A stretch of DNA of 64,000 bases from contig DATKDP010000016.1 of assembly GCA_035546335.1 (NCBI GenBank), forward strand, positions 135,380-199,379, in the 5' to 3' direction. Shown piece by piece: positions 3,733 to 59,135 of the stretch. Both the position numbers and the translations under genes were made by a program. The notes below the pieces were generated by a model. That model searched no databases, was not told where the DNA came from, and saw only the letters and a list, made by a program, of their open reading frames with translations. The first letter of the stretch is position 1; each line of letters begins with the position of its first letter. The stretch is from Thermoanaerobaculia bacterium (GTDB lineage Bacteria > Acidobacteriota > Thermoanaerobaculia > Gp7-AA8).

Positions 3733-3892
3733 CGTTCTGTCGTGCCTTCCGGTCGAAGGGAGGTACCGCTGTCTGCCTTCCCGTCTTCGCCCGCTTCAGG
3801 AGTGAATTGCAACTCGAATACCGTACGGCCCATTCGATCCCTTCTGCGTTCTTTCGCGTCCGTACTGTAAACTCCCCGGAGACGAAATCACA

Positions 3893-6511: not shown

Positions 6512-7602
6512 GACACCGCTACGGCTGGCTGGATCCCGAGCTGATCCGGAGACTTCTGAGCGAGCTCGGTCTGCGCAGGCTCTTCAATCACCTGCTGCTC
6601 CAGTCGGGAGGCGACGTCGAGGAGGCGATGCAGTGGATGCGCGCTCTGCAGCAGCAGGGCTATCTCGATCCGAACATCGATCTGGAGGCCTTCTTCGCGC
6701 GACTGGCCGAGGAGAACGTGTTCGGCCCCGACGGTCAGGGAAATCTGGTGCTCGGTGCGGCGGGGGAGCGGCAGATCCGCAGAGACGCACTGGACGAGAT
6801 CTTCGGAGGACTGAAGAAGTCTTCAGCCGGCTACCACTCGGTGGCATCGGCGGGAGAAGGAAGCGAGCGGCTGACCGAGACGCGCCCCTATCGATTCGGT
6901 GACGATCCCGCATCCCTCGATTCCGTCCGAACCGTTCAGAATGCCCTGCGCAACGGCAATCCGTTCGAACGGATCACGATCACCGAAGATGATCTGGAAG
7001 TCTTCGAGACGGAGCACAACAGCAGTTGTGCCACGGTGGTGATGATCGACGTCTCGCATTCGATGATTCTCTATGGCGAGGACCGCATCACGCCCGCGAA
7101 GAAAGTCGCTCTGGCGCTGACCGAACTGATTCTCACGAAGTATCCGAAGGATTCGATCGATGTCGTCCTCTTCGGCGACGACGCGACGGAGATCCCGGTG
7201 TCGGAGATCCCCTACGTCAAAGTGGGCCCCTATCACACGAACACGAAGGCGGGACTGGAGCTCGCGCAGAACATCCTCCGCCGGAGAAAGCACAACAACA
7301 AGCAGATCTTCATGATCACCGACGGGAAGCCGTCGGCGTTAGTTGAGAACGGTCGTCTCTACACCAATTCGTTCGGTCTCGACATGAGGATCGTCAACCG
7401 AACCCTGGAAGAGGCGGACCACTGCAGGAGGGCCCAGATCCCGATCACGACGTTCATGCTGGCAACGGACACGATGCTGGTGAACTTCGTCGAGCAGCTC
7501 TCGAAGATCAACCGCGGACGCGCCTTCTACTCCTCCCCTGATCGCCTGGGTGAGTACATCCTCGCCGACTACATTCGCAACCGGCGAAAATTCGTCCACT
7601 GA
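6508..7602 (+). CDS. von Willebrand factor A (vWA) domain protein
   Basis: VVMIDVSHSM (MIDAS DxSxS) ... FGDDATEI ... IFMITDGKPSA. Start taken at ATG 6508 (ATGA overlap with the upstream stop). The track start at 6472 is an alternative. Confidence 0.7.
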   Translation: MRHRYGWLDPELIRRLLSELGLRRLFNHLLLQSGGDVEEAMQWMRALQQQGYLDPNIDLEAFFARLAEENVFGPDGQGNLVLGAAGERQIRRDALDEIFGGLKKSSAGYHSVASAGEGSERLTETRPYRFGDDPASLDSVRTVQNALRNGNPFERITITEDDLEVFETEHNSSCATVVMIDVSHSMILYGEDRITPAKKVALALTELILTKYPKDSIDVVLFGDDATEIPVSEIPYVKVGPYHTNTKAGLELAQNILRRRKHNNKQIFMITDGKPSALVENGRLYTNSFGLDMRIVNRTLEEADHCRRAQIPITTFMLATDTMLVNFVEQLSKINRGRAFYSSPDRLGEYILADYIRNRRKFVH

Positions 7603-7603
7603 T

Positions 7604-10252
7604 TCAGGGGTAATACCCCCGGACCGTCTTTGCCTTTCCATCGGTCACTTCCACCGAGACCTGCCGCCATTTCGAGCCGGCCTGCACTCCATCGGGGGGG
7701 TAGAATCCGAGCAGATACTGCGAGCGAAGCTCCTGCTGGATCTCGTTGTAGATCCTGCTGAGGTCGACGACGTTGTCGATGTAGTAGACGTTCCCGCCGG
7801 TCTCGGACGCGAATCGCCCGAACTTGTACCGCGCATCGATCTCGTTGGCCCTGATGCCGATGCCGATTCCGTAGATCGGCACGCTGGTCCGCTTCGCGTA
7901 CTCGAGCGCCTGATCGAACGAGAATCGGGAGGCCGTGTCTTTGCCGTCGGTGATCACGATGAGCGCCCGCTGCCCTTTGATGCTCTGAAAGTTGTAGAGG
8001 GAGAAGACGATCGCATCGTACAGGGCGGTCGCTTCCTCGGCGCGCAGCGAAGCGAGACCGGCGTGAAGGGCCGAAAGCTGCCTGCTCCACTTCTGCAGCA
8101 CGACCGGCTGCGTGTCGAACGAGACGAGAAACGCCTGGTCGCCTGGCTTGAGCACCGACTTCAGGAACTGCGCTCCCGTTTTCTGCGCCTCCGGCATCCG
8201 GTCGCGCATCGACCCGGAACTGTCGATGGCGATGCCGAGCGAGAGCGGGAGATTCTGCACGTACTCGAATTTGGCCAGTTTGACCGTGGTTCCCTCGTCC
8301 TTGACCGTGAAGGCCGATTCGGTCAGCCCGAGCACCGGCCGCCCGCGGCTGATCACAGTGGTCGGAAGCTCGACGAGATGCACTTCGACCTGCTGGAGAA
8401 ACTCGGGAGAGTTCAGGAAGACGACATCCTCCGCCGGCTGCAGGGTCTCGTCCTCGAGCGTTGCGACCGCTCGCAGATAGGCGATTCCGAGATCGGCGGG
8501 AACCCGGATCGTCTGGACGAAGGGTGGAGAGTAGAGGGTCGCCAGCCTCGTCTCGTTCAGATAGAGCTCGATGTTCTCGAGGGTCTTTCCCTCCGGGATC
8601 GACGCATCGATCTCCACGCGCACATTGCCCTGGACGTTGGCGGCGATTCGGGGGGAGACGATGCGCACGCGGAAGGGGTCGGCTCCGACGTTCACGACGA
8701 GCTCGTCTCCACTGACGATTTTTTGATTCGCATCGAGGCCGACCGCGCGAACGCGACGCGCCTGCGGAACCTCGCCGAGATCGAGATTGAGCGCGAAGGG
8801 AGGCGAGCGCTTCACCATGATCTTCTTCCCGTCGAGATAGAACTCGACGGACTTGATCTCTTCGCCCGTGACGATCGTGTCGATGTGATGCAGGCCGGTC
8901 AGCAGGTCGTTGGGCAGCGGAACGAGGCGGAGCCGCGATTCGCCCTCGATGAAGTTGCTCTGGATGCGGGCGATCGTCTCGGCTCCGTCGGCCTTCCGCG
9001 CCGCGAGCGCGGGATCTTCCTGGACCGCAGGGACATCGAGCGTGGCCTCGACGATCGCCTCGGCGCCCGAGTTCGCGTCGATGATCTTGATCCGGGAGAC
9101 ATAGCCGGCAGGGCGCAGAAAACGCTCGATGACGATGGGAATCGTCTCTCCCGCCTGCTCTGCGGGGATGTCGTACTTGTATCGATAGGTCTCGAACATC
9201 TTTCCGTCTTTGAGCACCTCGCCGCTGACGTCGACGTTGTAATAGCCGACTCCATCGATGTCGTTGAGTCGAAGGTGATCGCGGGTGATGGGAATCGTCA
9301 TCTGCACCGAGGTGCGCGCTCCCCGTTTGCCGGGATACCGAGTGGACACCTCACCCGTGACCAGTCTGGGGGCCGCTGGGTTGGAGAGAACCGCCGTGCG
9401 GAGGATCTTGTTGATGTCCTCCTCGTTGACTTTCGGCGGGCTGTAGATCGATTGCAGTTGCGTGGAGTTCTGTTGCGACTGAAACACCGCCGTCAGGATC
9501 TCGCGGCCATCTTTGCAGTCGAAGCCGATTTTGCTCACCCGGGACATGGCGTCGAGCGACTCGAAGAAAACCGCGTTGACGGCTCGCTGGAGGTCGCCTA
9601 GATAGCTGGCGATGATCTCGGTGGAGAGCAGATCCTGGAGCGATTCGTTGGAGCTCCCCATGCCGATCGGCGTCCAGAGCCGGTAGTCGCCTCCGTTGCG
9701 AGGTCTGTAGAAAAGAAGGCGCACGTCGTGTCCTATGCCGGGGATGTGGTGATAGCGCCAGATCTCGAGCGGCTGAAGATAGCGGTCGCACTCGGTGGGC
9801 AGGCGGTCGCCCGGCCGCCCGTGGATCAGGTAGATCTTCGTGCGATCGGACGTCATGTACTTGAACTGTTGTCTCGCTTCCTCCAGCATCTCGCCGTACT
9901 GTTCTCGGTAGTCGTTGTAGGCGCTCTTCGGATCGGGATCGCGCCGCCTCCAGAACTCCTCGATGTAGAGGTCGCGCTGGGCATCCGATTCGAGGAGAAG
10001 AAAGGTGTTGAGCTCGGTCTGGAGCAGGATCGGCTCGACGTCCTTGAGAAACGTCTGATATTTCTCGCTGAGCTTCGCGATCGCGTCCCGTCGCTCGCGC
10101 CGCGACAGCTTCCGCACTCCGGGATCTGCCGTCGGATCGGGCTTCGCGATCTGCGCGGCTTCGGCAGGCGCTGGATTGTTTGCAGCGGCATGGACGTTGA
10201 TGGACGGGAAGATCAGGAAGACCGCTGCTGCTGCGACGAGAATGTTCTTCAT
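7604..10252 (-). CDS. Secreted GWxTD-domain protein with a C-terminal vWA domain
   Basis: Signal peptide MKNILVAAAAVFLIFPSINVHA. GWxTD-like core (EFWRRRDP ... TDRTKIYLIHGRPGDR ... EIWRYHH). vWA MIDAS IAIDSSGSM ... ITDGKDT near the C-terminus. Confidence 0.7.
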   Translation of the reverse strand: MKNILVAAAAVFLIFPSINVHAAANNPAPAEAAQIAKPDPTADPGVRKLSRRERRDAIAKLSEKYQTFLKDVEPILLQTELNTFLLLESDAQRDLYIEEFWRRRDPDPKSAYNDYREQYGEMLEEARQQFKYMTSDRTKIYLIHGRPGDRLPTECDRYLQPLEIWRYHHIPGIGHDVRLLFYRPRNGGDYRLWTPIGMGSSNESLQDLLSTEIIASYLGDLQRAVNAVFFESLDAMSRVSKIGFDCKDGREILTAVFQSQQNSTQLQSIYSPPKVNEEDINKILRTAVLSNPAAPRLVTGEVSTRYPGKRGARTSVQMTIPITRDHLRLNDIDGVGYYNVDVSGEVLKDGKMFETYRYKYDIPAEQAGETIPIVIERFLRPAGYVSRIKIIDANSGAEAIVEATLDVPAVQEDPALAARKADGAETIARIQSNFIEGESRLRLVPLPNDLLTGLHHIDTIVTGEEIKSVEFYLDGKKIMVKRSPPFALNLDLGEVPQARRVRAVGLDANQKIVSGDELVVNVGADPFRVRIVSPRIAANVQGNVRVEIDASIPEGKTLENIELYLNETRLATLYSPPFVQTIRVPADLGIAYLRAVATLEDETLQPAEDVVFLNSPEFLQQVEVHLVELPTTVISRGRPVLGLTESAFTVKDEGTTVKLAKFEYVQNLPLSLGIAIDSSGSMRDRMPEAQKTGAQFLKSVLKPGDQAFLVSFDTQPVVLQKWSRQLSALHAGLASLRAEEATALYDAIVFSLYNFQSIKGQRALIVITDGKDTASRFSFDQALEYAKRTSVPIYGIGIGIRANEIDARYKFGRFASETGGNVYYIDNVVDLSRIYNEIQQELRSQYLLGFYPPDGVQAGSKWRQVSVEVTDGKAKTVRGYYP

Positions 10253-10283: not shown

Positions 10284-11444
10284 ATGCGAATTTACCTCGA
10301 TAACAACGCCACGACTCCAATCCATCCAGCCGTCCTCGAAACGCTCGATCGGACGCTCCGGTCGAGCTGGGGCAACGCATCAAGTATTCATGAAGAAGGC
10401 CAGCGGGCCCGGCGTGAGCTGGAGCAGGCGAGGGAATCCGTTGCTGCTCTCATCCACTGCGAGCCTCGCGAGCTGGTCTTCACGAGCGGCGGCACCGAAT
10501 CGAACAATGCCGCGATCCATGGCTCTGTTGTAGCCTCATTCCCCTCGCAGGCCGGTTACAACATCGTCACAAGTGCCATCGAGCATCCTTCGGTCCTCGA
10601 GCCTCTCCGTGATCTCGAAGCTCGCGGCTGCAGCGTCACGCGCGTTGCACCCGGGCGCGACGGCGCCATCTCCGCCCGCGCCATGATCGATGCGATTTGT
10701 CCCGATACCCGGCTCGTCTGCCTGATGCTGGCCAACAACGAGACCGGAGTCCTGCAGCCGGTGGCCGAGGTGGCCGCAGCCTGTCGCGAGCGGGGCATCC
10801 ACATGCATTGCGACGCCGTGCAGGGAGGAGGGAAGGTCGAAGTCGATGTTCGCCGCCTCGACTGCGATACGCTCTCGCTGTCGGGCCACAAGATGCACGG
10901 GCCGAAGGGAATCGGAGCCCTCTTCGTCCGCCCGGGGACCACGCTCCACCCGCATCTCGCCGGAGGAGCCCAGGAGCGGCGTCGCCGTGCCGGTACCGAG
11001 AACGTCCCGCAGGCGGTTGCGTTCGGCGTCGCGTCTGCGATCGCGTGGCAGGAGACGTCGGTGTGGAGCGAGATCGCGCTCTTGCGCGATCGTCTGGAAA
11101 CAGAGCTGCGGCTGCTGATTCCCGGACTCGTGATCCATGGGGAAGGGACCACCCGCCTGCCCAACACATCGAATCTGCGCTTCCCGGGGGTCGACGCCGA
11201 GGGGCTGGTGATCGCACTCGATCTCCAGGGTGTCGCCGTCTCGACCGGCTCGGCCTGTTCCTCGGGACGCGTCGAGCCGAGCCATGTTCTTCTGCAGATG
11301 GGACTTTCGGAAGAAGACGCGAAGAGCTCGGTTCGCATATCATTGAGCAGGTTCACGGCTGCCGCGGAGATCGATCGCCTGATCGAGCTTCTCGGTGAGC
11401 TCGTTCCGAAAACGCGAAGGGATGCGGCGATACGCGCGAGCTGA
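10284..11444 (+). CDS. Cysteine desulfurase (NifS/IscS family, class V aminotransferase fold)
   Basis: MRIYLDNNATTP ... FTSGGTESNN ... SLSGHKMHGPKGIGALFVR. PLP-Lys in SGHK. Confidence 0.85.
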   Translation: MRIYLDNNATTPIHPAVLETLDRTLRSSWGNASSIHEEGQRARRELEQARESVAALIHCEPRELVFTSGGTESNNAAIHGSVVASFPSQAGYNIVTSAIEHPSVLEPLRDLEARGCSVTRVAPGRDGAISARAMIDAICPDTRLVCLMLANNETGVLQPVAEVAAACRERGIHMHCDAVQGGGKVEVDVRRLDCDTLSLSGHKMHGPKGIGALFVRPGTTLHPHLAGGAQERRRRAGTENVPQAVAFGVASAIAWQETSVWSEIALLRDRLETELRLLIPGLVIHGEGTTRLPNTSNLRFPGVDAEGLVIALDLQGVAVSTGSACSSGRVEPSHVLLQMGLSEEDAKSSVRISLSRFTAAAEIDRLIELLGELVPKTRRDAAIRAS

Positions 11445-12583
11445 TGATGAACGGGCGGAAGATCCTCGAGGGTGACCTCGCCGCTCTGCAGCTTCCCGAC
11501 GTCCTCAGTTTCATTGCGATGATCCGCAAGAGCGGGAAGATGGTCCTGCAGCAGGGATCGCTCGAGCGGACCATTCACTGGAAGGACGGCGAGGTAGCAT
11601 TCGCCACTTCCAATTCACCCGAGCATTCCCTCGGACTCTTTCTTCTTCGAAACGGAAAGATCACTCAGGAGCAGTATGAGGAATCACGGGAGCGAATGAC
11701 TCCGCAGACGCGGCATGGAAAGCTGCTGGTACAGATGGGGGTGATCTCACCGAAGGATCTCTGGTGGGCGGTCAAGAATCAGGTTCTGGAGATCATCTAT
11801 TCGATGTTCACCTGGCGCGACGGGTCGTTCGTCTTTCTCGACGAGGTCGAAGAGATCAGCCAGGAACGAATCATTCTCTCGATCAATCCATCCGTCGTCA
11901 TCATGGAGGGGGTGAGGAGAGTCGATGAAGAGGCGAGAATCCGCGAAAAGATCACCAGTCTGGATATGATCTTCGTCCGCCTGCCCGGGGCCGAGCCGAT
12001 CCTTCCCGACTTCGACATCACGCACGAGGAGGTGCGCCTGTTTCACGAGATCGACGGACATCGCTCGATTCGAGACCTGATCGGCTCGACCGATCTGACC
12101 GAGTTCGAAGTGACACGGATCCTTTTCCAGCTCATCTCCGCGCGTCTGATCGAGCCGGTCTCGCCGGAGAAAAGCGGAAGGCCCGTATTTCTCGATGTCG
12201 AGGACTCACCGGAACTGCTCAAGATCGTTTCCACCTACAACGACATGTTCGATCGTCTCTACGCGACTCTTCAGTCCGCGGTCGGCGAAGAGCGAGCACG
12301 CGAGATCTTCACCAACGTGCTGCAGAGCTCCGATACCGACGAGCTCTGGTCGGGAGTGTTTTTCGACCCTTCCGGGCGGTTCGACGAGAACATGCTGATC
12401 GCCAACATCTCCGAGCTTCCGTTCGAGAAGAGAAAGTCGGTTCTCGACGAAGGGTTGAATACTCTTCTGTCGATTCAGCTCTTCGAGGTGTCGCAGCATC
12501 TCGACGCTGCGACCAAGGTGCAGGTGTTTCGATTCATCTCCGATCAGAAAGCTCAGATCGAGAAAGCGACTGCCGAGTTTTGA
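11444..12583 (+). CDS. DUF4388-domain protein, hypothetical
   Basis: N-terminal GDLAALQLPDVLSFIAMIRKSGKMVL motif typical of DUF4388. Start overlaps the stop of the desulfurase (TGATGATG). Confidence 0.55.
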   Translation: MMNGRKILEGDLAALQLPDVLSFIAMIRKSGKMVLQQGSLERTIHWKDGEVAFATSNSPEHSLGLFLLRNGKITQEQYEESRERMTPQTRHGKLLVQMGVISPKDLWWAVKNQVLEIIYSMFTWRDGSFVFLDEVEEISQERIILSINPSVVIMEGVRRVDEEARIREKITSLDMIFVRLPGAEPILPDFDITHEEVRLFHEIDGHRSIRDLIGSTDLTEFEVTRILFQLISARLIEPVSPEKSGRPVFLDVEDSPELLKIVSTYNDMFDRLYATLQSAVGEERAREIFTNVLQSSDTDELWSGVFFDPSGRFDENMLIANISELPFEKRKSVLDEGLNTLLSIQLFEVSQHLDAATKVQVFRFISDQKAQIEKATAEF

Positions 12584-13522: not shown

Positions 13523-14692
13523 ATGGCGCATTTCCGCTTCGTGACAGCAGGTGAATCGCACGGTCCCTCACTCACCGTGATCGTCACCGGTGTCCCCGCC
13601 GGTCTGCGCCTCGATCGCGGCCGGATCGACCGTGAGCTCAAACGCCGTCAGCACGGCCACGGACGCGGCGGACGGATGAAGATCGAGAGCGACGAGGCGG
13701 AGATCACCGGCGGCGTCCGCGGTGGCGAAACGCTCGGATCTCCGATCGCGATCTCGATTCGGAACCGCGACTTTGCGGCGTGGGAGAGCGCGATGGGGGT
13801 GTGGGACGTCGATCAGCAAGAGGCCTCCCGCCGCCGCGTTCATGCGCCACGGCCGGGTCACGTCGACCTCGCCGGCGGAATGAAGTACGACCGCCATGAT
13901 CTTCGCGACGTCCTGGAGCGTGCCTCCGCGCGCGAGACTGCGGCCCGCGTCGCCGCGGGAGCCATCGCCAGAGAGCTGCTCCGCTCCTTCGACATCGAAA
14001 TTCGCTCGGGAGTCGTCGCCATCGGAAGGAGCGGCGATCCGCAGTACAGTCCTTCGTGGAGTGAGCTCGTCGCAGTCGACGACGCGTCGCCGTTGCGCGC
14101 CGCCGGAGCCGGCGAAGCGGAGATGGTCGCCGAGGTGGATCGAGCGAGAGAGGCGGGGGAAACGGTCGGAGGTGTGATCGTCGTCGCGGCGCACGGAATC
14201 CCGGTGGGGCTCGGCAGTTACGTTCAATGGGACGAGAAGCTCGACGGCAGAATCGCTCAGGCGATCATGTCGGTCCATGCCGTGAAGGCGGTGTCGATCG
14301 GAACCGGAGTCGCCGCTGCCTCCTCGTGGGGCTCGGAGGTTCATGACGCGATCCACTTCGAGGAGACCAGACGCTATCACCGGCTGACGAACAGAGCGGG
14401 AGGCCTCGAGGGAGGCGTCACCAACGGAGAAGACGTCGTCGTCCGCGCATTCATGAAGCCGATCTCCACGCTGCGCCGCGGCGTTCCCTCGGTCGACATC
14501 GAATCGCGTGAGGCGCAGAGATCGCAATGGGAGCGGAGTGACGTGACTGCGGTCCCCGCCTGCGGCATCGTCTGCGAGGCGATGCTGGCGATCATTCTCG
14601 CCGACGCGATGCGGCAGAAGTTCGGGGGCGACTCCCTCGAGGAGATGCGCCGCAACTACGATGCGTACCTAGAGCAATTACAGCGTTTCTGA
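13523..14692 (+). CDS. aroC: Chorismate synthase
   Basis: FRFVTAGESHGPSLTVIVTGVPAGL ... RRQHGHGRGGRMKIE. Confidence 0.9.
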   Translation: MAHFRFVTAGESHGPSLTVIVTGVPAGLRLDRGRIDRELKRRQHGHGRGGRMKIESDEAEITGGVRGGETLGSPIAISIRNRDFAAWESAMGVWDVDQQEASRRRVHAPRPGHVDLAGGMKYDRHDLRDVLERASARETAARVAAGAIARELLRSFDIEIRSGVVAIGRSGDPQYSPSWSELVAVDDASPLRAAGAGEAEMVAEVDRAREAGETVGGVIVVAAHGIPVGLGSYVQWDEKLDGRIAQAIMSVHAVKAVSIGTGVAAASSWGSEVHDAIHFEETRRYHRLTNRAGGLEGGVTNGEDVVVRAFMKPISTLRRGVPSVDIESREAQRSQWERSDVTAVPACGIVCEAMLAIILADAMRQKFGGDSLEEMRRNYDAYLEQLQRF

Positions 14693-15853: not shown

Positions 15854-15989
15854 AGTGGCCGAACTTTGTCGCGGATGCGACGCGAGGGTCAGGCGTTCTT
15901 GCGATGATCACACCTGGCATCCGCGACAAGTTCGGCTTGTGACCGATCGCGCGGACAGGTGAATCTCGCGACGATCGTTCCCCTCTCCC

Positions 15990-16260
15990 CATCAGCCAAC
16001 CTTACCAGAGGCAGCGACGTGACCATGGGGAGAGGGTCAGGGTGAGGGGCACGGCACAACATGCTGGCGAGTCCTTCGCTCACAGTTCGCCGGGGCCGGA
16101 CGAAGCTGTTCGCCTTCCGAGAGTCGAGCGAGCCTGATGCGGCATCTCGCGGCTCACTGCTTCGTCCCTACGAGAGCCGGAGGGGCACACTCACATGCTT
16201 GCGAGTCCTTCGCCCGCGGGGAGGATCGGAAGAATCGTTGACGGAATGGCCCGATTCCGT
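15990..16260. repeat. Intergenic repeat cluster: 12-bp-stem hairpin (16000-16062), a copy of dispersed repeat module M1 (about 16125-16215), flanked by 23-bp direct repeats (16061-16083 and 16197-16219)
   Basis: CCCCTCTCCCCAT...ATGGGGAGAGGG inverted repeat. CGGACGAAGCTgTTCGC ... TGCTTCGTCCCTACGAG matches the M1 copies at 23582 and 58845. catgctGgcgagtccttcgcTcac vs catgctTgcgagtccttcgcCcgc. Confidence 0.5.
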
Positions 16261-17794: not shown

Positions 17795-18445
17795 ATGAAT
17801 GACCGCCTGCTGAAGCTCGTCGTCACCCTTCTGATCATCGGCGGAATGCTGATCGCCGCGCTCTTCATGCTCGTCCGAATCCCGAGGATGATGATCCGCG
17901 AGGGGATGGCGACGGTCGCAAAGAAAGAGCAGCACATCGACCTTTCGGCGCTCGTGACGCAGATCCGCGACCTGAGCCGGCTGGAGACGACGTCGATGCG
18001 GGTGGTGAACGTCTCGCGCATCGACCAGTCGTACGGCGCCATTCCCGACAAGCTCGCCGGCGACTCCATCACCTTTCTCGCCGTCGGCGACGTGATCGCC
18101 GGGATCGATCTGTCGCAGATCACCCGCGAAGACGTCTACCTCGATCGCGAAGGGGTCCTGGTGATGAAACTTCCTCTTCCCGAGATCCTAGTCACGCGCC
18201 TCGACAACAAGGAGTCGAAGGTCATCACACGCGATACCGGCATGCTCAGAAGAGCGGACGTGAATCTCGAGAGCCGCCTGCGCCAGCAGGCCGAGTCGTC
18301 GGTGCGCGATGAAGCGCTGCGGAAGGGAATCCTCCCGCTCGCGGCGACGAACGCCGAAGTGAAGCTGTCGGGCTTCCTCAATACCGTCGGATTCCAGCGC
18401 GTTCGTTTCGAGAGCCGCCTGGTGACGCCGGAGCACCCGAGGTGA
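17795..18445 (+). CDS. DUF4230-like membrane-anchored hypothetical protein
   Basis: Single N-terminal TM (LVVTLLIIGGMLIAALFMLV) followed by a DUF4230-like profile. Confidence 0.45.
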   Translation: MNDRLLKLVVTLLIIGGMLIAALFMLVRIPRMMIREGMATVAKKEQHIDLSALVTQIRDLSRLETTSMRVVNVSRIDQSYGAIPDKLAGDSITFLAVGDVIAGIDLSQITREDVYLDREGVLVMKLPLPEILVTRLDNKESKVITRDTGMLRRADVNLESRLRQQAESSVRDEALRKGILPLAATNAEVKLSGFLNTVGFQRVRFESRLVTPEHPR

Positions 18446-18525
18446 GGGGCGAGAGGCGAGAGGCCAGAGACGAGGGGCGAGAGGCGAGTCGGTGAGTGAC
18501 GAGAGGCGAGAGTTCGAGGCGGGGT
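18441..18525. repeat. Purine-rich degenerate tandem repeat (GAGGCGAGAG-like units)
   Basis: ggtgaggggcgagaggcgagaggccagagacgaggggcgagaggcgag ... begins at the stop codon of the DUF4230 gene. Confidence 0.6.
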
Positions 18526-18554: not shown

Positions 18555-18717
18555 CTGGCCGAAGTCCCGAAGGGACGATTGAAAATAGCCCGGGACGAAG
18601 TCCCGGGTAGGGTAGCGCACAAGACACGAAGACCGCCAGTCCCGTAGGGACGGTTGACCGCCCGGGATGATGTCGCCGATTCGCCAGGGGCGGGCGCGGG
18701 ACGCCCGCTCTCCCCTG
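18555..18717. repeat. Three roughly 35-bp tandem units (GAAGTCCCGnAGGGAC cores) followed by a copy of dispersed hairpin module M2 (18686-18717)
   Basis: gaagtcccgaagggacg / gaagtcccgggtagggt / cagtcccgtagggacgg, then GGGGCGGGCGCGGGACGCCCGCTCTCCCC. Confidence 0.55.
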
Positions 18718-18725
18718 CGGTGGTA

Positions 18726-19766
18726 TCACCCTCCGGCGCCGTGGTCCCGCCGAAGGCGCCATCGCGCATCCACTTCGTCGATGAAGTGCGCGCGTCCCGT
18801 CGCGAGCCACTCCTCGAGCGCGTCCACGGCAGGGAGCTCGAGATCTCCGACTATCGACAGGCTCGCGGCGGAAGACACCTGCGCGAGCGGCTTCGTCAGG
18901 TGGGCGATGATCCGTGCGCTCCGCAAAATGCTCCAGCCGATCTCGTCCTCGCCATCCATCCGGATCCGGCGCGCCCCGCAACGCGACAGCATCGCCGCAG
19001 CTCTCCAGTTCTCATTCTCGAATGATTCCGGCAGGATCACATGGTCGATCAGGCCGTGCTCGGACGCGAGAGCGGCGATGTGCCGTTCCGTAGCGACGAG
19101 CAGGCTCTCGGGATTCGTGTGGAAGATGCGCTCGTACTCCTCCTCGGCGACATCCGACCGCTCGGCGAGGCTGCGGAGAGCGGAAGGGTCGCTGTCGATG
19201 GGAGCGGAGGCGAGAAACGCCGCGCCGTGCCGCGCAGCCGACGCTGCGAGGCGCTCGAGCGTTCCGAGGCTCGTCGTGACGGGATCGATGATCGGGATGA
19301 ACGCTCCCCAGAATCTCCCTTCGTCTCCCGCCTGTTGAAAGAGTCGCTCGAGATCGCCGAGATCGTCGGGCCAGCAGGCGATTGCGAGCGCTGTGCTTCC
19401 GTCGGGTGCCGGCAGCGATCCGGCGGACGAAACGAGAACGAGCGTCGCGAGGTTTTGCCCGGAGCAGAACTGAGCCGCCGCTTCGCCTGCGCCGAACAGA
19501 CTCTCGGCAAAGCCTGTGGCGTCGATCAGCAGCGGAGCAGTGAAGGGTCGTCGCTCCAGCTCGTCGCCGAGCGCCCGTTCGACGTCATGACAAACGATCG
19601 TGTCGGACCGCTCGGGGGCAGTCGACGTCAGATTGAAGTAATCGACGGCGACGGGAGCGTCTCGTTTCGGAGCGTACGCGCTGATGAGAGTCGAGCAGAA
19701 AAAGGGAGGTTCAGGATCGGCTCTCCGCTCGAGGCGGATCTGCTCCGACTTCCGGTAGGTGATCAA
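18726..19766 (-). CDS. Conserved hypothetical protein
   Basis: Coherent 340-aa ORF with coding-like composition. A TTG start at 19766 abuts the ribE stop. No recognisable motif. The annotated ATG at 19862 would overlap ribE by 100 nt. Confidence 0.4.
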   Translation of the reverse strand: MITYRKSEQIRLERRADPEPPFFCSTLISAYAPKRDAPVAVDYFNLTSTAPERSDTIVCHDVERALGDELERRPFTAPLLIDATGFAESLFGAGEAAAQFCSGQNLATLVLVSSAGSLPAPDGSTALAIACWPDDLGDLERLFQQAGDEGRFWGAFIPIIDPVTTSLGTLERLAASAARHGAAFLASAPIDSDPSALRSLAERSDVAEEEYERIFHTNPESLLVATERHIAALASEHGLIDHVILPESFENENWRAAAMLSRCGARRIRMDGEDEIGWSILRSARIIAHLTKPLAQVSSAASLSIVGDLELPAVDALEEWLATGRAHFIDEVDARWRLRRDHGAGG

Positions 19767-20374
19767 CGGTTCGCCACTCCCGGGCGATACGGCTCGAGCA
19801 GGCGCCGCGCGTATTTGGCCAGGATGTCGATCTCGATGTTCGACGGATCGCCGATCTCGCACGCTCCCAGATTCGTCTTCTGCAGTGTTTCGGGGATCAG
19901 CGCGACGCCGATCTCGTTGCCGGCGGGATCGACGATCGTCAGCGAGACGCCGTCGACGGCGATCGATCCCTTCTGGACGAGAAGCTCCGAATGATCCTCT
20001 TCGAGCCGCCAGCGATAGACGGAGAAGTCTCCCGCCGATTCTTTCGTCACCAGCGTGGCCACGGTGTCGACGTGACCCTGCACGATGTGTCCCCCGAGCC
20101 TCTCGGAGAGCCGCATTGCGCGCTCGAGATTCACGCGTCTGCCGGCAGGGAGCCGCTCGAATGTCGTCCGGCGCAGCGTTTCGGGAGAGAGGTCGGCATG
20201 GAATGACCTCGCCCCATCCGGAAAAACAGTGACGCAGACGCCGTTGACGGCGACGCTCTCTCCCTTTTCGAGATCGAGCGGAACATCGATCGAGCCGATG
20301 ATGATGCGGGCGCCGGCCTCCAGCGGCTCGAACGCCTCGAGCGTTCCCATGTTGCGGATGATGCCTGTGAACAT
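19763..20374 (-). CDS. ribE: Riboflavin synthase alpha subunit
   Basis: MFTGIIRNMGTL ... two lumazine-binding repeats (GESVAVNGVCVTV, GSIAVDGVSLTI). 203 aa. ATG overlaps the ribD stop. Confidence 0.9.
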   Translation of the reverse strand: MFTGIIRNMGTLEAFEPLEAGARIIIGSIDVPLDLEKGESVAVNGVCVTVFPDGARSFHADLSPETLRRTTFERLPAGRRVNLERAMRLSERLGGHIVQGHVDTVATLVTKESAGDFSVYRWRLEEDHSELLVQKGSIAVDGVSLTIVDPAGNEIGVALIPETLQKTNLGACEIGDPSNIEIDILAKYARRLLEPYRPGVANR

Positions 20375-21474
20375 CAGATCGCCGTTTCCTGATCGGGGTA
20401 GGCGGTCACCACGAGGTCGTTTCCCGATCTCTCCACCGAATCGAACCGGAAACGGGGCGCGTCTGTCAACCGCGACACTCCGCCGGACGGAGAGTAGAGC
20501 GCGGGCGCCGACTCCCCTCCGAGAAGCACGGGCGCGATGAAGAGGATCATCTTCTGCCACAGCCTTCTCCGGATCACGTCGGTGTGCAGTGCCGAGCCTC
20601 CTTCGACGATGACCGAGCGTACGCCTCTTTCGTAGAGCGCGCGCAGAACTTCGAGGAGATCGATGCGCCCTTCGCCGTCGCTCACCGAGGCGATGACCTC
20701 GGTATTCTTCGCGCCCTCGTAGCGCTCCGGGCGTGTCGTGAACAGCACCGTCGGACGATCGTCGGCGAGCAGAGTGGACGATGCCGGGATCTTTCCCCGC
20801 GAGTCGACGATCGCACGAATCCAGGGGGTGATCGACGTATTCAGCCCGAGCCGCCGCGTGAGCTCCGGGTCGTCGGTCACGACCGTGCCGCTGCCGACGA
20901 GAATCGCATCGTGCTCCTCGCGCAGGAGGAAGTTCCGCTGGCGCGATTCGGTCGAAGTGATCCATCGGCTCTCGCGATTGATGGTTGCCAGCTTGCCGTC
21001 GAGCGACATGCCCCCCTTCAGCACGACGAACGGGAGGCGGGTGCGAACCGAGTGGAGGAAGACTTCGTTGAGCCGTCGCGCCTCTTCCTCGAGCAGGCCG
21101 GCCTCGACGGCGATTCCGGCGGCCCTCAATCGTTCGATCCCCTGACCGTCGACGAGAGTGTTGGGATCGCGTGTGGCGATCACCACGCGCGCCACCCGCG
21201 CGTTCACCAGCGCCTCGGCGCAGGGAGGCGTCCGTCCTGTGTGGGCGCACGGCTCGAGGCTGACGTAGACCGTCGCGCCGGCCGGGTCCTCCCGGCATGC
21301 GCTCAGCGCCTCGACCTCGGCGTGCGGCTCGCCGGCCCGCCGATGAAATCCCTCGCCGATGACCGTCGAGCCCCTGGCGATGACGCAGCCGACCATCGGG
21401 TTCGGGCTGACGGAGTGAAGGCCGAGCCTTGCCAGCTCGAGAGCGCGACGCATCGCGGCGTGATCATCTTCCAT
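20374..21474 (-). CDS. ribD: Bifunctional riboflavin biosynthesis deaminase/reductase
   Basis: MEDDHAAMRRALELARLG ... HAEVEAL ... PCAHTGRTPPCAEAL (CMP/dCMP deaminase zinc motif), then a reductase domain. Start at the internal Met of the longer track ORF. Confidence 0.9.
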   Translation of the reverse strand: MEDDHAAMRRALELARLGLHSVSPNPMVGCVIARGSTVIGEGFHRRAGEPHAEVEALSACREDPAGATVYVSLEPCAHTGRTPPCAEALVNARVARVVIATRDPNTLVDGQGIERLRAAGIAVEAGLLEEEARRLNEVFLHSVRTRLPFVVLKGGMSLDGKLATINRESRWITSTESRQRNFLLREEHDAILVGSGTVVTDDPELTRRLGLNTSITPWIRAIVDSRGKIPASSTLLADDRPTVLFTTRPERYEGAKNTEVIASVSDGEGRIDLLEVLRALYERGVRSVIVEGGSALHTDVIRRRLWQKMILFIAPVLLGGESAPALYSPSGGVSRLTDAPRFRFDSVERSGNDLVVTAYPDQETAI

Positions 21475-21526
21475 TCGTGGCGGTAGTCTCGCACGAAGCG
21501 CCGTCGATGTCAGCCTGCGTCCCGCA

Positions 21527-21733
21527 CCACGCGCGACGATCCCGCCAACCAGTGGGGAGAGCGGGCGTCCCGCGCCCGCCCCTGCAACACGCGCGACGAT
21601 GCCGCCAACCCGCCGGGGAGAGCGGGCGTCCCGCGCCCGCCCCTGTAACACGCGCGACGATGCCGCCAACCCGCCGGGAGAGCGGGCGTCCCGCGCCCGC
21701 CCCCGCAACACGCGTGACGATCCCGCCAACAGC
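21527..21733. repeat. 3.5 tandem copies of a roughly 59-bp repeat, each carrying hairpin module M2, in the 5' leader of ribD
   Basis: cacgcgcgacgat[c/g]ccgccaacc..ggggagagcgggcgtcccgcgcccgcccctg[c/t]aa repeated at 21527, 21587, 21646, with a partial copy at 21704. Confidence 0.8.
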
Positions 21734-21766: not shown

Positions 21767-22413
21767 TCACCCGACGATCTCCCCCGCATGAAGCCGCCTG
21801 AGGAAGATCTCGAGGGGAAGGACGAGTGTGCCGTCGACTTCGAGCTCGCGGTCGCCGCGATAGACGATGTAGCTCTTCGCTCTCGTTCCGGAGAGAAAGG
21901 CCTCGATTCCCTTCCTGTGCTCGCGGCGGAAGTCGCGAGCGTGGTTGACCTCGATGGCGACGACATCGCGACCCCGCCACCAGACGAAATCGACCTCGCT
22001 TCCGCTCGGCGTCGCCCAGTAGCCGAGGGAGCCCTTGACGCCCTGGTAATGGAGATGACTCCGGATCTCGTGAAGGACGAGATGCTCGAGGAGAACACCA
22101 TCCCAGTCCGGTGGCAGCGGCTGATCGAGCCCGCCGGCGGCCGCGTGGAGAACACCGGAATCGAACCAGTAGAACTTCGGGAGCGCTACCTCCTTGACTT
22201 TCGATCGCGGCCTGTAGGCCGGAAGCCAGTGGCCGATGAGGGTATCGACGAGGATCTCGAAGTAGCCGCGCGCCGTCTCGCGCGAGACGCGGGAAGAAGG
22301 TTGACCAGGTGGGCGTCGCCGAAATTCGAGCGGATCCAGGTGCTCTTGCCGGTCCCGCGCGGGCCGAAGAGAAAGAACGACGTCGGAGGAGGGCGCAGTT
22401 CACGTGGAAACAT
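21767..22413 (-). pseudogene. DUF4143/AAA_14-family ATPase remnant with internal deletion and frameshift
   Basis: N-terminal 40 aa MFPRELRPPPTSFFLFGPRGTGKSTWIRSNFGDAHLVNLL (Walker A). It is then joined out of frame to the C-terminal DUF4143 part SRETARGYFEILVDTLIGHWLPAYRPRSKVKEVALPKFYWFDSGVLHAA ... HAGEIVG*. The roughly 200-aa AAA core is absent. Confidence 0.65.
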
Positions 22414-22666
22414 CGATACCAAATTTACCGTCAAATTGGTGTCGATGTCTACAGGGCGACCGGTTGTGTCGTCACAGGTGGACATCCACTTGGGGTCGGG
22501 CGTCCCCATGGGGGTCGGGCGTCCTCGCCGCCGCAGGCAAAATGCGGCAGCTCTGAGCAGGCTGAGTAGATCTGTCCCGTTGTTTCTCAGCCTCCACGAC
22601 ACCAGGGTCTGACCCCCCGCGCGGCGGGACTCCCAGGTCATCGAGCAACCGAGGTATTCGTGGAAC

Positions 22667-22750
22667 GTGGACGACCACGAAGTTCGCTACGACCCCTCAA
22701 AGGCCGCGCAGAATCTGAAGAACCATGGGGTGTCGTTCGAAGAGGCGGCG
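22667..22750 (+). pseudogene. BrnT (DUF497) toxin N-terminal stub
   Basis: V(M)DDHEVRYDPSKAAQNLKNHGVSFEEAA matches the BrnT N-terminal FEWDPxKAxxNxxKHGVSFEEA motif. The reading frame degenerates immediately after. Confidence 0.55.
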
Positions 22751-22789
22751 CATCCACCTTCCTGCCCGCCTTTGCTCCACGCCCGTTAC

Positions 22790-23570
22790 GGCGCTTCAAC
22801 AAGGCATCCTCGAGGAGATGAGACTCTGGACTCCGGAGAAGGGAACGCCACAAGGCGCGGTGATCAGCCCGTTGCTGGCGAATCTCTATTTGCACCCTGT
22901 CGACGTGGAAATGCGCGAGGCGGGGCTCCGAATGATTCGCTATGCAGACGACATGGTCATCCTGTGCGGGAGTCGCGAAGAGGCGGAACACGCACTGACC
23001 AAGCTCCGAAGCGCCCTCGAAGCGAAGCAACTCACGCTCCACCCGGTCAAGACGAAGCTCGTCGATGCGACGCTACGGCTAGGATTCCAGTTTCTCGGAT
23101 ACGACTTCTTCGGAGGACGACGGTATCCGCGCGAGCCGAGTGAACGGAAACTGCGCGAGCAGATCCGGAAACGAACTCGCAGGAATCGATCCGACAATCT
23201 GAAGACGATCATCGAAGATCTCAACAAGGTACTTCGAGGATGGTTCGCGTATTTCAAGCACCCTCACGCCGGGCGTTCGAAGGTCTCGACGGCTACATTC
23301 GCTACCGGCTCAGAGCCATTCTGAGCAAGCGAAGCCGACGCGGCCGGAAACGACGCCGTGGGCGTGGAAAGGACCATTTCCGCTGGCCCAACGCCTACTT
23401 CCGTGCGCAAGGTCTCTTCTTCCTTCACGAGAACCATCTGCGCGCCCTACGGTCCCATGCAGGGTGAACCACCAACTGGAGAGCCGGATGCGGGGAGATC
23501 CGCCAGTCCGGTTCGGAGGGAGGGGGAGGCCGGGAGGCCTCTCCCTCCCCCTATCTCGGGGCCGCCCGCT
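22790..23570 (+). mobile_element. Group II intron remnant: 5'-truncated, frameshifted RT/maturase ORF plus RNA domain V (23481-23514)
   Basis: RT motifs GTPQGAVISPLLANLYL, IRYADDMVILC, thumb/X LRGWFAYFKH. After a frameshift near 23265 comes LDGYIRYRLRAILSKR ... RWPNAYFRAQGLFFL, the maturase C-terminus. Domain V GAGCCGGATGCGGGGAGATCCGCCAGTCCGGTTC. RT domains 0-3 and RNA domains I-III are missing. Confidence 0.7.
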
Positions 23571-23581
23571 CTCCCTGGATG

Positions 23582-23750
23582 ATGGCAAGCACCCGGACGA
23601 AGCTATTGCGCTTCGTTACTGCTTCGCAAGCCCTCTGTTCTATCCCTCGCGCAAATGCTTCGTCCCTACGATGGGCGTTGCGAATTTGTTGGCGCACCCG
23701 CGCATCCGGGGGCGGGCGTGGGATGCCCGCCCCCGGTTCGGACTTTACGG
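23582..23750. repeat. Dispersed repeat copy (module M1 followed by hairpin module M2)
   Basis: atggcaagcacccggacgaagctattgcgc ... tcgcgcaaatgcttcgtccctacga ... gggggcgggcgtgggatgcccgccccc. About 85% identical to the inverted copy at 58845-58985. Gives near-identical spurious peptides MASTRTKLLR in the ORF track. Confidence 0.8.
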
Positions 23751-26437: not shown

Positions 26438-27441
26438 CAGCGCGCGGAGCGACGATGGCGTTTCCCGAGCACATCGCAGCCGTTCTCGAACAGTACGCGG
26501 TTCGCTCCGACACGAAGGCGGCGCTCCACGACCTCTACGTCTCGCTCGGGGGCGTCGTTCTCGAATGCTTTGCCGATCTGGCGGAGAAGATCACCGTTCC
26601 CGCGATGCTCACTCCGGAGGATACTCTGGGCATCGTCCCGATGGCGATCGAGCGCTATCTTCGCAGGAATCATCCCCTCTGGGCGAACGATCAGCCCACC
26701 CCGGGCTTCTGGTTCCCGCGCGATCTCGGAGGACGGGCTTCGGGGATGGCGGTTCCGGCGGGAGTGCTCGGCGGGGATCAGCGAAGTGAGCTGACGAGCC
26801 TCCTGGAGACGACGGTGCGAAGGATCGTCGGAGAGAGCCAGCCGATCGGCGAAGGCCTGCTGATCGTCGGCCGCAACGCGCATTTCGGAGGGCGCCCGGA
26901 GACGATCTCGTTCGACGTCGTCGCTCGCGATCTCGACGATGCGATCGCGGTCGGACTGGCAGCGGGTCGCCAGCATACGATTCCCGGCTCGGTAGGGGAG
27001 ACGAGCGGGAGCATCGACATGAGATTCGGTGTGGCGCTTCTGTGGGAAGTGCAGCCGAACGTGCTCAAGCCGGCAGGAGCGCGGAATCGCGCGATCAGCG
27101 GCTTCTACCGGCGGCATCGAAACTGGCACATCACCACGCTGACGGCAGGGTTGCTGTGGCTGAGACAGCGCGAGATCACGACCTTCATTCTGCGGGGAGA
27201 GGCGCTCGTGCCGACGCATCAGGTCAACCCCGAGCAGCCGATCGGAGCGGAGATCGTTCGCCATCACAACCGTACCGTTTCGAGGGTCGCGCGATCGCTC
27301 TCGATCGATCTCGCGGCGCCGAACGAGACCGAGGTGGAGACCTTGCTCGCGACCGAGGTGATGAACACGGCGCTGCGCGCGCATGTCGAATCGGGTCCGG
27401 CGCACGAGTTTTTGTGGCGCGTGCGGTGGCATGCGCCGTAG
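26434..27441 (+). CDS. Conserved hypothetical protein, translationally coupled to dusB
   Basis: ATGA overlap with the dusB stop. Non-repetitive 335-aa ORF with no recognisable motif. Confidence 0.4.
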   Translation: MTARGATMAFPEHIAAVLEQYAVRSDTKAALHDLYVSLGGVVLECFADLAEKITVPAMLTPEDTLGIVPMAIERYLRRNHPLWANDQPTPGFWFPRDLGGRASGMAVPAGVLGGDQRSELTSLLETTVRRIVGESQPIGEGLLIVGRNAHFGGRPETISFDVVARDLDDAIAVGLAAGRQHTIPGSVGETSGSIDMRFGVALLWEVQPNVLKPAGARNRAISGFYRRHRNWHITTLTAGLLWLRQREITTFILRGEALVPTHQVNPEQPIGAEIVRHHNRTVSRVARSLSIDLAAPNETEVETLLATEVMNTALRAHVESGPAHEFLWRVRWHAP

Positions 27442-27454
27442 CGGCGCTTTTGCT

Positions 27455-27665
27455 GTGGGGAGAGCGGGCGTCCCGCGCCCGCCCCCGTGCGGCGGAACAG
27501 CCTTTGCGTTTCGGAAACTGGTTTAGGCGGACGGCAAAGGGGCGGGCGCGGGACGCCCGCTCTCCCTCGCGCAAATGCTTCGTCCCTACGAGGGATGAAG
27601 TGGGCTTGGTTGCATCGTCGCGGGTGCGACAGGGGCGGGCGCGGGACGCCCGCTCTCCAGGGGGC
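27455..27665. repeat. Dispersed repeat cluster: M2 (reverse) ... M2 + 3' part of M1 ... M2
   Basis: ggagagcgggcgtcccgcgcccgcccc (27462-27492). ggggcgggcgcgggacgcccgctctcc immediately followed by ctcgcgcaaatgcttcgtccctacgagg (27538-27594). ggggcgggcgcgggacgcccgctctcc (27631-27660). Confidence 0.8.
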
Positions 27666-36917: not shown

Positions 36918-36957
36918 CAGAATCGCAGAATCGCAGAATCGCAGAATCGCAGAATCG
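36918..36957. repeat. Perfect microsatellite (CAGAATCG)x5
   Basis: cagaatcg repeated five times head-to-tail between the kinase stop (36913) and the RBS/ATG of the next small ORF (36978). Confidence 0.9.
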
Positions 36958-36977
36958 CGAAAGCGGAGGTCAGACAC

Positions 36978-48730: not shown

Positions 48731-48814
48731 CCAGCAATCGGCGTGACCATCAGACGCTCGATGAGGTACCGATTCATGCCAGGGGCGGGTGCAGGCGAGA
48801 TTATGGGGGATAGG

Positions 48815-58811: not shown

Positions 58812-58839
58812 GCGTCCCCGTCATCCCGAGCTCTGTAGC

Positions 58840-59135
58840 TCCTCGTAGGGACGAAGCATTTGCGCCAGGGACAGACCAAGAGGCTTGCGACGCCGCAAGG
58901 CAGCGCAATAGCTTCGTCCGGGTGCTTGCCATGAGCTAACCAAGCCCTGCGGGGAGAGCGGGCGTCTCGCGCCCGCCCCTGTCCCGAATTGCGAACCTCA
59001 GCGCGCAGTCGTTCCGGCGCGAGTGTCACAGCCTCGCAGTACTCGGGGGAAGCTATTGCGCTGCGCTGCGGTCATGCGAGCCTGTTGTGGCGGCGCTCGC
59101 GCAAATGCCTCGCCCCTGCGAGAGAGGTTGCAGTC
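58840..59135. repeat. Dispersed repeat cluster: M1 (reverse), M2 (reverse), second degenerate M1 (forward)
   Basis: ctcgtagggacgaagcatttgcgcc ... cgtccgggtgcttgccat (58845-58935). ggggagagcgggcgtctcgcgcccgcccc (58945-58985). gaagctattgcgctgcg ... tcgcgcaaatgcctcgcccctgcgag (59050-59130). Confidence 0.8.

Follow-up and report, generated by a model that had tools for sequence, protein, structure and literature searches.

The intergenic DNA of an uncultured soil Thermoanaerobaculia bacterium (phylum Acidobacteriota) contains short GC-rich hairpin modules that recur between unrelated genes, and the question they raise is what kind of element they are. We analysed a stretch of 64,000 nucleotides from a metagenome-assembled genome (MAG) of this organism (assembly GCA_035546335.1, contig DATKDP010000016.1, positions 135,380 to 199,379), referred to here as the window. 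A first-pass annotation of the window had described two modules, M1 and M2, as a family resembling repetitive extragenic palindromes (REPs) or miniature inverted-repeat transposable elements (MITEs). Our analysis indicates, with a probability of roughly 72%, that M1 and M2, together with a linker module that we call M3, represent two families of REP-type repeats arranged in clusters like REPINs or bacterial interspersed mosaic elements (BIMEs) in Thermoanaerobaculia intergenic DNA. All counts, copy numbers, and gene contexts refer to the 64-kb window, which is ordinary chromosome as judged by Pfam matches to chorismate synthase, lgt, rho, relA/spoT, pilMNOPQ, accBC, and thiE, and whose RimO is 100% identical to HVT43149.1. 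To our knowledge, work on REPs and REPINs has so far been almost wholly confined to Proteobacteria and Cyanobacteria.

Comparison with shuffled sequence, with both strands counted, indicated that the modules are a real repeat family. The M2 core, GGGGCGGGCGYGGGAYGCCCGC, gave nine matches where 0.02 were expected (18687+, 21561-, 21622-, 21682-, 23709+, 27464-, 27539+, 27632+, and 58958-, the last with one mismatch), and two M1 motifs gave 6 and 4 matches versus 0.17 and 0 expected. Profile searches built from the M1 and M2 copies found no additional copies in the window. On a gene map made from Pfam scans of ~50 open reading frames (ORFs), all 14 module copies were extragenic and occupied six of the 22 gaps that measure at least 40 nt. 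Intergenic DNA makes up ~7% of the window; the modules account for ~19% of it and for 10-67% of each of the six gaps. Both orientations relative to the flanking genes were seen. The modular family, its intergenic dispersal, and its presence in both orientations are thus as first described. The "at least seven loci" claimed for M2 are actually five, holding the nine copies and a half copy at 23560-23577, and the M1 copy that had been placed at 16125-16215 is a diverged copy located at 16086-16176.

Read on the opposite strand, M1 consists of GTAG + GGACGAAGCATTTGCGC ... GCGCAATAGCTTCGTCC, i.e., (CTC)GTAGGGACGAAGCATTTGCGC...GCGCAATAGCTTCGTCC. It folds as an imperfect hairpin with a 15-17-bp interrupted stem, conserved arms, and a variable core or loop of ~37 nt, and the tetranucleotide directly at the hairpin foot is GTAG in four of the five copies and GCAG in the fifth. 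Similar elements have been reported beside the subclass-2.4 tnpA_REP gene AFZ56567.1 of Anabaena cylindrica, where one flanking REP reads GTAGGGGCGAAGCATTGGC...GCCAATGCTTCGCCC (69 nt) and the second GTAGGGGTGAAGCATTCGC...GGCGAATGCTTCACCC (71 nt) (Quentin et al. 2018 Table S1, PMC6006769). Like these REPs, M1 has GTAG directly at the foot, a variable loop of ~35-40 nt, a total length of ~70-80 nt, and a compensated stem, and the arms are nearly alike (GTAGGG[A/G][C/T]GAAGCATT in A. cylindrica and GTAGGGACGAAGCATT in M1). When M1 and the A. cylindrica REPs were aligned jointly, the 15-pair stem was 91% paired, compared to 35-47% when the arms were slid, and three stem pairs had changed on both sides in a compensatory manner. 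Unlike its cyanobacterial counterparts, M1 is found in Acidobacteriota, has an inner stem of TTGCGC/GCGCAA and a 3' arm that is one base longer, lacks an adjacent gene for a REP-associated tyrosine transposase (RAYT) in the window, and is regularly joined to M2. Because of its GTAG foot, near-identical arm, same size, and compensated stem, M1 appears on sequence grounds to have the testable defining features of a GTAG REP.

Profile searching of the window yielded four full M1 copies and one copy with only the right arm. M1a (23582..23676, + strand; profile match 23583-23675), a long GTAG-tagged REP, reads ATCGTAG-GGACGAAGCATTTGCGC ... GCGCAATAGCTTCGTCC-GGGTG on the minus strand, with its left extension ATGGCAAGCAC included. 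M1b (58838..58932, -; profile match 58839-58931) is 88% identical to M1a over 90 nt and has its GTAG head toward the stop codon of a metallophosphatase gene (58811). The diverged, GCAG-headed M1c (59034..59125, +) is 74% identical to M1b, inverted relative to it, and directed with its head toward the start of a FecR/DUF6600 gene (59205). M1d (16086..16176, +), which lies upstream of rmuC, is the most diverged full copy, and it is flanked on both sides by a direct repeat of ~24 nt, CACATGCTKGCGAGTCCTTCGC (16058-16081 and 16192-16215). A related sequence, ATGGCAAGCACCC, stands before M1a and M1b, and a GGGGAGAGGG/CCCTCTCCCC hairpin is present at 15980-16040, just upstream of the M1d direct repeat. 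M1e (27566..27594, +; profile match 27561-27594), which has the right arm only (CTCGCGCAAATGCTTCGTCCCTACGAGGG), follows the 27539 copy of M2 directly, fused to its tail. A stretch at 27430-27456 that looks like a degenerate M1 arm was rejected, as it is more simply explained as the upstream gene's own terminator-like hairpin.

As the first-pass annotation had noted, the repeats generate spurious ORFs, and the ORF encoding MASTRTKLLR (ATGGCAAGCACCCGGACGAAGCTATTGCGC) occurs twice, in M1a and M1b. Because the substitutions between these two copies show no third-codon-position bias and because M1c and M1d have no ATG, a coding role for M1 was rejected.

M2 folds into a GC stem of 7 bp closing a 5-nt loop, and it also has a GGGG/CCCC extension, a TCT bulge, and a CCC tail; it contains the hairpin GCGGGCG-n5-CGCCCGC just as it was originally described. 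Its modules start at 18687, 21554, 21615, 21676, 27457, 27539, 27632, and 58951, in addition to the variant at 23709 and the half copy at 23560-23577. Self-comparison of the window showed that seven copies are 100% identical across 27-31 nt, loop included. The head in all copies is GGAG(A)/GGGGAGAG and not GT[AG]G. In four copies, M2 is preceded by the third module, M3 (GGTTGGCGGCATCGTCGCGCGTGTTGCA).

The M2 copies occur as singletons, as a tandem array, and in inverted pairs. A single copy at 18687..18715 (+) lies 11 nt beyond the stop codon of the gene at 18726-19862 (-) and 80 nt from an Acido-Lenti-1 RNA. At 21521..21731 (-), an M3-M2-M3-M2-M3-M2-M3 array with a 60/61-nt period contains M2 at 21554-82, 21615-43, and 21676-703, and is seen as a tandem repeat of 3.4 units with a 60-nt period at 21524-21730; it lies upstream of ribD, with 46 nt between its end and the gene start (21474). 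The M3 copies are mutually 72-92% identical, so that the "spacers" of this array are themselves repeated, and we rejected a CRISPR array on that basis. The right half of M2 (CGCCCGCTCTCC) is found at 23560..23577 (+; weak profile match at 23563-78), where the 3' end of a truncated intron of group II directly precedes it and M1a follows after 5 nt. On the other side of M1a, 15 nt beyond the htrA stop codon, the variant GGGGCGGGCGTGGGATGCCCGCCCCC (23709..23734, +) forms a symmetric 12-bp hairpin, which may have diverged from M2 or may instead be a 3' hairpin belonging to htrA itself. A REPIN-like inverted pair at 27457..27565 consists of M2(-) at 27457-85 and M2(+) at 27539-65, with tails facing across a 53-nt spacer, and the whole is predicted to form a single hairpin (-96 kcal/mol, z = -7.9); the folding z-scores of single copies are mostly not significant. 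This pair is followed by a long-form unit (27603..27658, +), with M3 at 27603-31 and M2 after it, that stops 22 nt short of the start codon annotated for rimO (27681). Finally, a copy with one mismatch, located in the loop (58951..58979, -), sits between the inverted M1b and M1c.

The six loci have the following neighbours. M1d lies between an aminotransferase gene and rmuC; the M2 singleton between DUF4230 with the Acido-Lenti-1 RNA and the 3' end of a convergent gene; the M3-M2 array between ribD and an ATPase pseudogene; the half-M2, M1a, and the M2 variant between the truncated group II intron and the 3' end of htrA; the M2(-), the M2(+) with its M1 arm, and the M3/M2 unit between an unknown gene and rimO; and M1b(-), M2(-), and M1c(+) between the metallophosphatase gene and the FecR-like gene. 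At every locus, the M2 head (GGAGAG) and the M1 head (GTAG) face the nearest gene, with the tails inward, a pattern that we report as an observation only because the numbers are small. Three M2 copies and the 23709 variant are positioned 11-16 nt beyond stop codons, and M1b is 27 nt beyond one. These four post-stop M2 copies have the same orientation relative to the transcript, while the five upstream of start codons have the opposite one. The post-stop placement fits a role at transcript 3' ends.

REPs and BIMEs of E. coli and REPINs of Pseudomonas are extragenic, species-specific, and often located at gene 3' ends (PMC3733652, PMC3116915). The modules in the window share these traits and likewise occur as singletons, as inverted pairs that fold long, and as clusters with conserved linkers; they differ in the M2 head, which is GGAG(A) rather than GT[AG]G, and in having three direct M3-M2 units in a regular 60-nt array. 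The arrangement that characterises a REPIN, i.e., inverted REPs with a short spacer, is seen for M1b/M1c, for the 27457-27565 pair, and for M2 doublets in another acidobacterial lineage.

These doublets were found by searching for the exact M2 22-mer, which occurs at 12 loci in 185,579 species genomes. Five of the loci are acidobacterial; the others (Actinomycetota and others) look like chance GC hairpins. Among JGI (Joint Genome Institute) metagenomes, the 22-mer was present on two contigs, both from an AA8-like organism. Both in the Acidobacteria gp7 AA8 MAG and on the Ga0209468 contigs, M2 forms a back-to-back inverted doublet of ~60 nt exactly between genes, GAGGAG-C-GCGGGCG-TCT-CGCCCGC-CTCCCGGGG-GCGGGCG-CGGGA-CGCCCGC-TCTCCTC, and one copy carries a compensated stem change, G-C to A-T. 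No M2 was found on viral contigs; an M1 16-mer matched there 16 times, in each case by chance within coding sequence, and a BLAST comparison of M1 with plasmids likewise returned chance matches only.

A comparison with an acidobacterial relative provides evidence for insertion. The Acidobacteriota MAG GCA_038040385.1 has the same gene pair as the rimO locus of the window (52% identity for the orthologue of the unknown gene and 81% for rimO), and its spacer before rimO is 25 nt versus 239 nt of repeats in the window. The two spacers represent an empty and a filled site. M1 and M2 were not found in relatives with ~80% RimO identity, and the repeat families are lineage-specific. In the Thermoanaerobaculia MAG GCA_036380735.1 (L040), a different palindromic family is present at equivalent sites, with one array just upstream of rimO. 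In this family, which had no Rfam match, tandem 9-mers (ATAGGACGA / ATGGGACGA / ATAGGACCT) form the arms of long palindromes. Its arrays lie at 3735-3835, 9868-9935, 11374-11480, 14639-14660, 20889-20931, and 21237-21290 in L040, and it is also present in AA8-like contigs (L003, 4555-4635; L013, 9700-9795). The 9-mer arrays and the M1 head have [AG]T[AG]GGACGAA in common.

We compared M2 to published REPs with short GC stems. The subclass-2.6 REP of Aequorivita reads GCTGG-CGCGGGCG-TCC-CGCCCGTG, and the subclass-2.7 REP of Calothrix reads GTAGT-GCGGGCA-TCT-TGCCCGC (PMC6006769 Table S1). M2 shares the 13-mer GCGGGCGTCCCGC with the Aequorivita REP, and in the Ga0209468 (L013) doublet the hairpin that partners M2 has a stem-loop identical to that of the Calothrix REP. 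A GC stem of 7-8 bp and a loop of the TCC/TCT type are common to these elements; M2 differs in its head tetranucleotide and, in the window, in its 5-nt loop. Likeness among short GC palindromes can be convergent. Because its head is GGAG(A) and not GT[AG]G, we file M2, from its sequence features, as REP-like and not as a canonical GTAG REP.

Acidobacteria are known to carry repeats associated with Y1 transposases, namely the TIRYT inverted repeats with the motif GGGGWSAS (Di Nocera et al. 2013, PMC3733652; Quentin et al., PMC6006769) and, in Solibacter usitatus, ~600 copies of class-3 HUH-associated structures (PMC3733652, PMC6006769). The M2 end GGGGAGAG fits the TIRYT/subclass-2.1 motif, which is present in five of eight M2 copies; this is a low-information motif, however, with 29 occurrences in the window versus 20 expected. 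The inverted repeats of K. versatilis aba2776 and a homologue contain GGGGACAG and are not hairpins, and the K. versatilis terminal inverted repeat that we inspected (GGGGAAAATCGGGGACAGACGAAATAAT) is, unlike M2, not palindromic. Because GGGGWSAS is near chance in the window and the K. versatilis repeat forms no hairpin, a link between M2 and TIRYTs is weak and serves as a lead only. Neither M1 nor M2 resembles the Solibacter class-3 structures (CnGA-GCCGCGACC...).

By analogy with established REP/RAYT systems, we infer that M1 and M2 would have been mobilised by a RAYT and would be spread genome-wide. Copies would move as single-stranded DNA hairpins through the action of an HUH/Y1 tyrosine transposase whose single-copy gene would lie elsewhere in the genome (PMC6006769, PMC3733652, PMC3116915). 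This enzyme would recognise the single strand in its folded form along with the tetranucleotide at the hairpin foot; for M1, the RAYT would most likely belong to subclass 2.4. Resident copies may have a passive role, protecting or terminating transcripts as 3'-end hairpins, binding proteins, or serving as recombination substrates.

Several observations weigh against a REP assignment. The first-pass annotation had proposed a search for a cognate RAYT, and neither a RAYT nor another Y1/HUH gene was detected in the window or in the M2-bearing loci by Pfam scans of ~50 ORFs or by a six-frame phmmer search with 11 published RAYT/TIRYT sequences as queries, in which the positive controls were found. 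(A tblastn search with E. coli RayT and with consensus queries also gave nothing and was superseded by phmmer.) In addition, M2 does not have the canonical GTAG/GTGG head, the fit of GGGGAGAG to GGGGWSAS carries little information, the K. versatilis TIRYT repeat that we inspected is no hairpin, and M1, at ~80-95 nt, is longer than typical REPs of 20-40 nt. The perfect identity of M2 copies could also come from binding-site selection or gene conversion instead of recent transposition.

Other explanations can be weighed against these data. M1 might be a MITE, i.e., a deletion derivative of an insertion sequence (IS) with a DDE transposase, moved in trans via its terminal inverted repeats, with M2 an unrelated hairpin. 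The M1 arms do form imperfect 17-18-bp inverted repeats on either side of a variable core, and M1d has its ~24-nt direct repeat on both sides; however, M1 is asymmetric in that GTAG marks just one of its ends, it is very short for a MITE (~80 nt), its arms resemble REPs that flank a Y1 transposase gene rather than an IS, and Pfam scans detected no IS in the window. Moreover, no consistent target-site duplication was found at M1a, M1b, or M1c, so that M1 falls outside the definition of a MITE although inverted arms are present. We therefore consider this origin highly improbable. Of the original "REP/MITE-like" label, the REP half holds (GTAG, the match to RAYT-flanking REPs, inverted pairs, extragenic location, and an empty site), and the MITE half does not, given the lack of target-site duplications and of an IS-type transposase. 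It is also very unlikely that the modules are structured RNAs, such as cis-regulatory leaders, 3' elements, or small RNA genes, that are repeated because they function at the RNA level. Their stable hairpins, the compensatory changes in the M1 stem, the consistent orientation of the four post-stop M2 copies and the opposite one of the five upstream of starts, and the nearby Acido-Lenti-1 RNA would all be in keeping with such a role. Nevertheless, covariation is confined to the palindrome and is equally explained by a DNA hairpin, the modules occur in both orientations relative to transcription, the neighbouring genes are functionally unrelated (ribD, rimO, rmuC, htrA, and the FecR-like gene), single-copy folding z-scores are mostly not significant, and Rfam searches, even at lax thresholds, returned no match for M1 or M2 and only chance-level miRNA matches for M1, M2, and M3.

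M2 by itself could be a binding site, for instance for a nucleoid or regulatory protein, or a terminator-type hairpin, kept by selection and spread by local duplication and gene conversion. Such an explanation would account for the identity of M2 copies across 27-31 nt including the loop, for their clustering within ~11 kb plus one further locus, for the tandem array, and for the several copies just past stop codons. Yet no T-run follows the M2 copies and a terminator scan of the window reported none of them, so M2 is not an intrinsic terminator as defined; the same 22-mer occurs as inverted doublets in a different acidobacterial lineage, beyond the reach of local duplication, and M2 associates with M1, a REP type. 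We regard this alternative as unlikely, and it overlaps with a REP assignment because REPs themselves bind proteins, with IHF, gyrase, and Pol I as known examples (PMC6006769). A further reading, tentative and also unlikely, holds that M2 is a distinct, GGAG-headed REP class with its own putative single-strand DNA enzyme, horizontally shared between Thermoanaerobaculia and 'gp7', and a docking site for other mobile DNA. Pointing to docking are the findings that M1 is always joined to the tail side of M2 and that one M2 copy contains the end of the group II intron. If such a class were real, it would, together with the 9-mer-array palindromes of relatives that share TAGGGACGAA, point to an acidobacterial hairpin repertoire co-evolving with HUH enzymes.

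The group II intron that adjoins the half copy of M2 occupies 22660-23561. It is 5'-truncated and frameshifted, with a fragment of the reverse transcriptase (RT)/maturase at ~22780-23470, domains V/VI at 23479-23554 (Rfam, 52.6 bits), and a BrnT-toxin fragment fused upstream; full-length RTs related to it are only ~360-390 aa. When the intron was aligned to a relative whose RT is 75% identical, its 3' end was seen to abut the right half of M2 (CGCCCGCTCTCC) directly. We rejected intron relatives as a route to further M2 copies, as the closest RT is only 75% identical and its 3' exon is unrelated. The DNA separating the M3-M2 array from the intron fragment holds a short P-loop ATPase-like ORF (21790-22403, -) with a FLFGPRGTGKST motif; it has no Pfam match and appears to be both frameshifted and truncated. 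The stretch from 21.7 to 23.6 kb looks like a graveyard of gene fragments with repeats on both sides.

The Acido-Lenti-1 RNA at 18563-18607 (-) (Rfam RF01687, 50 bits, E = 2.6e-8) is 80 nt from the M2 copy at 18687, and more GTCCCGNAGGGAC-type hairpins surround it, with a weak second match at 18638-18689. M1 shares GGGACGAAG with this RNA, but the covariance model misses M1, and a kinship between the two was rejected. Two simple tandem repeats are also present in intergenic DNA: (GAGGCGA)x10 follows the DUF4230 gene immediately (18439-18512), and (CAGAATCG)x5, a perfect repeat, is located at 36918-36958. Downstream of pilMNOPQ, an ORF at 48743-53257 (+) encodes a protein of 1504 aa in which about nine Ig-like (HYDIN/ASH/DUF1573-type) domains follow one another in tandem; its diverged 306-321-nt coding repeats are unrelated to M1 and M2.

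A gapped M1-type pattern was found as two inverted copies on one IMG/VR contig, compared to ~0.5 expected by our own estimate. These M1-like copies (5557-5624 and 7390-7460; GTAGGGGCGAAGCATT...AATGCTTCGCCCCTAC) have GTAG at both ends and enclose 1.77 kb overlapping a phage morphogenesis gene that contains an intein. This contig (L043) showed no detectable Y1 transposase.

REP-type repeats are already a well-known bacterial kind, and current understanding of REP biology is unchanged by these results. Points of modest interest are the GGAG-headed M2 that is common to a distant acidobacterial lineage, the regular joining of M2 to M1, and the intron fragment that ends inside M2. For the genome itself, the repeats account for spurious ORFs and unusually long intergenic regions, may account for breaks in MAG assembly, and mark sites that collect rearrangements and other mobile elements. 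The likeness of the M1 arm across phyla suggests a strong sequence constraint from the cognate RAYT. An apparently canonical long GTAG REP in uncultured Thermoanaerobaculia, with arms near-identical to those of cyanobacterial REPs, would widen the range of this element type.

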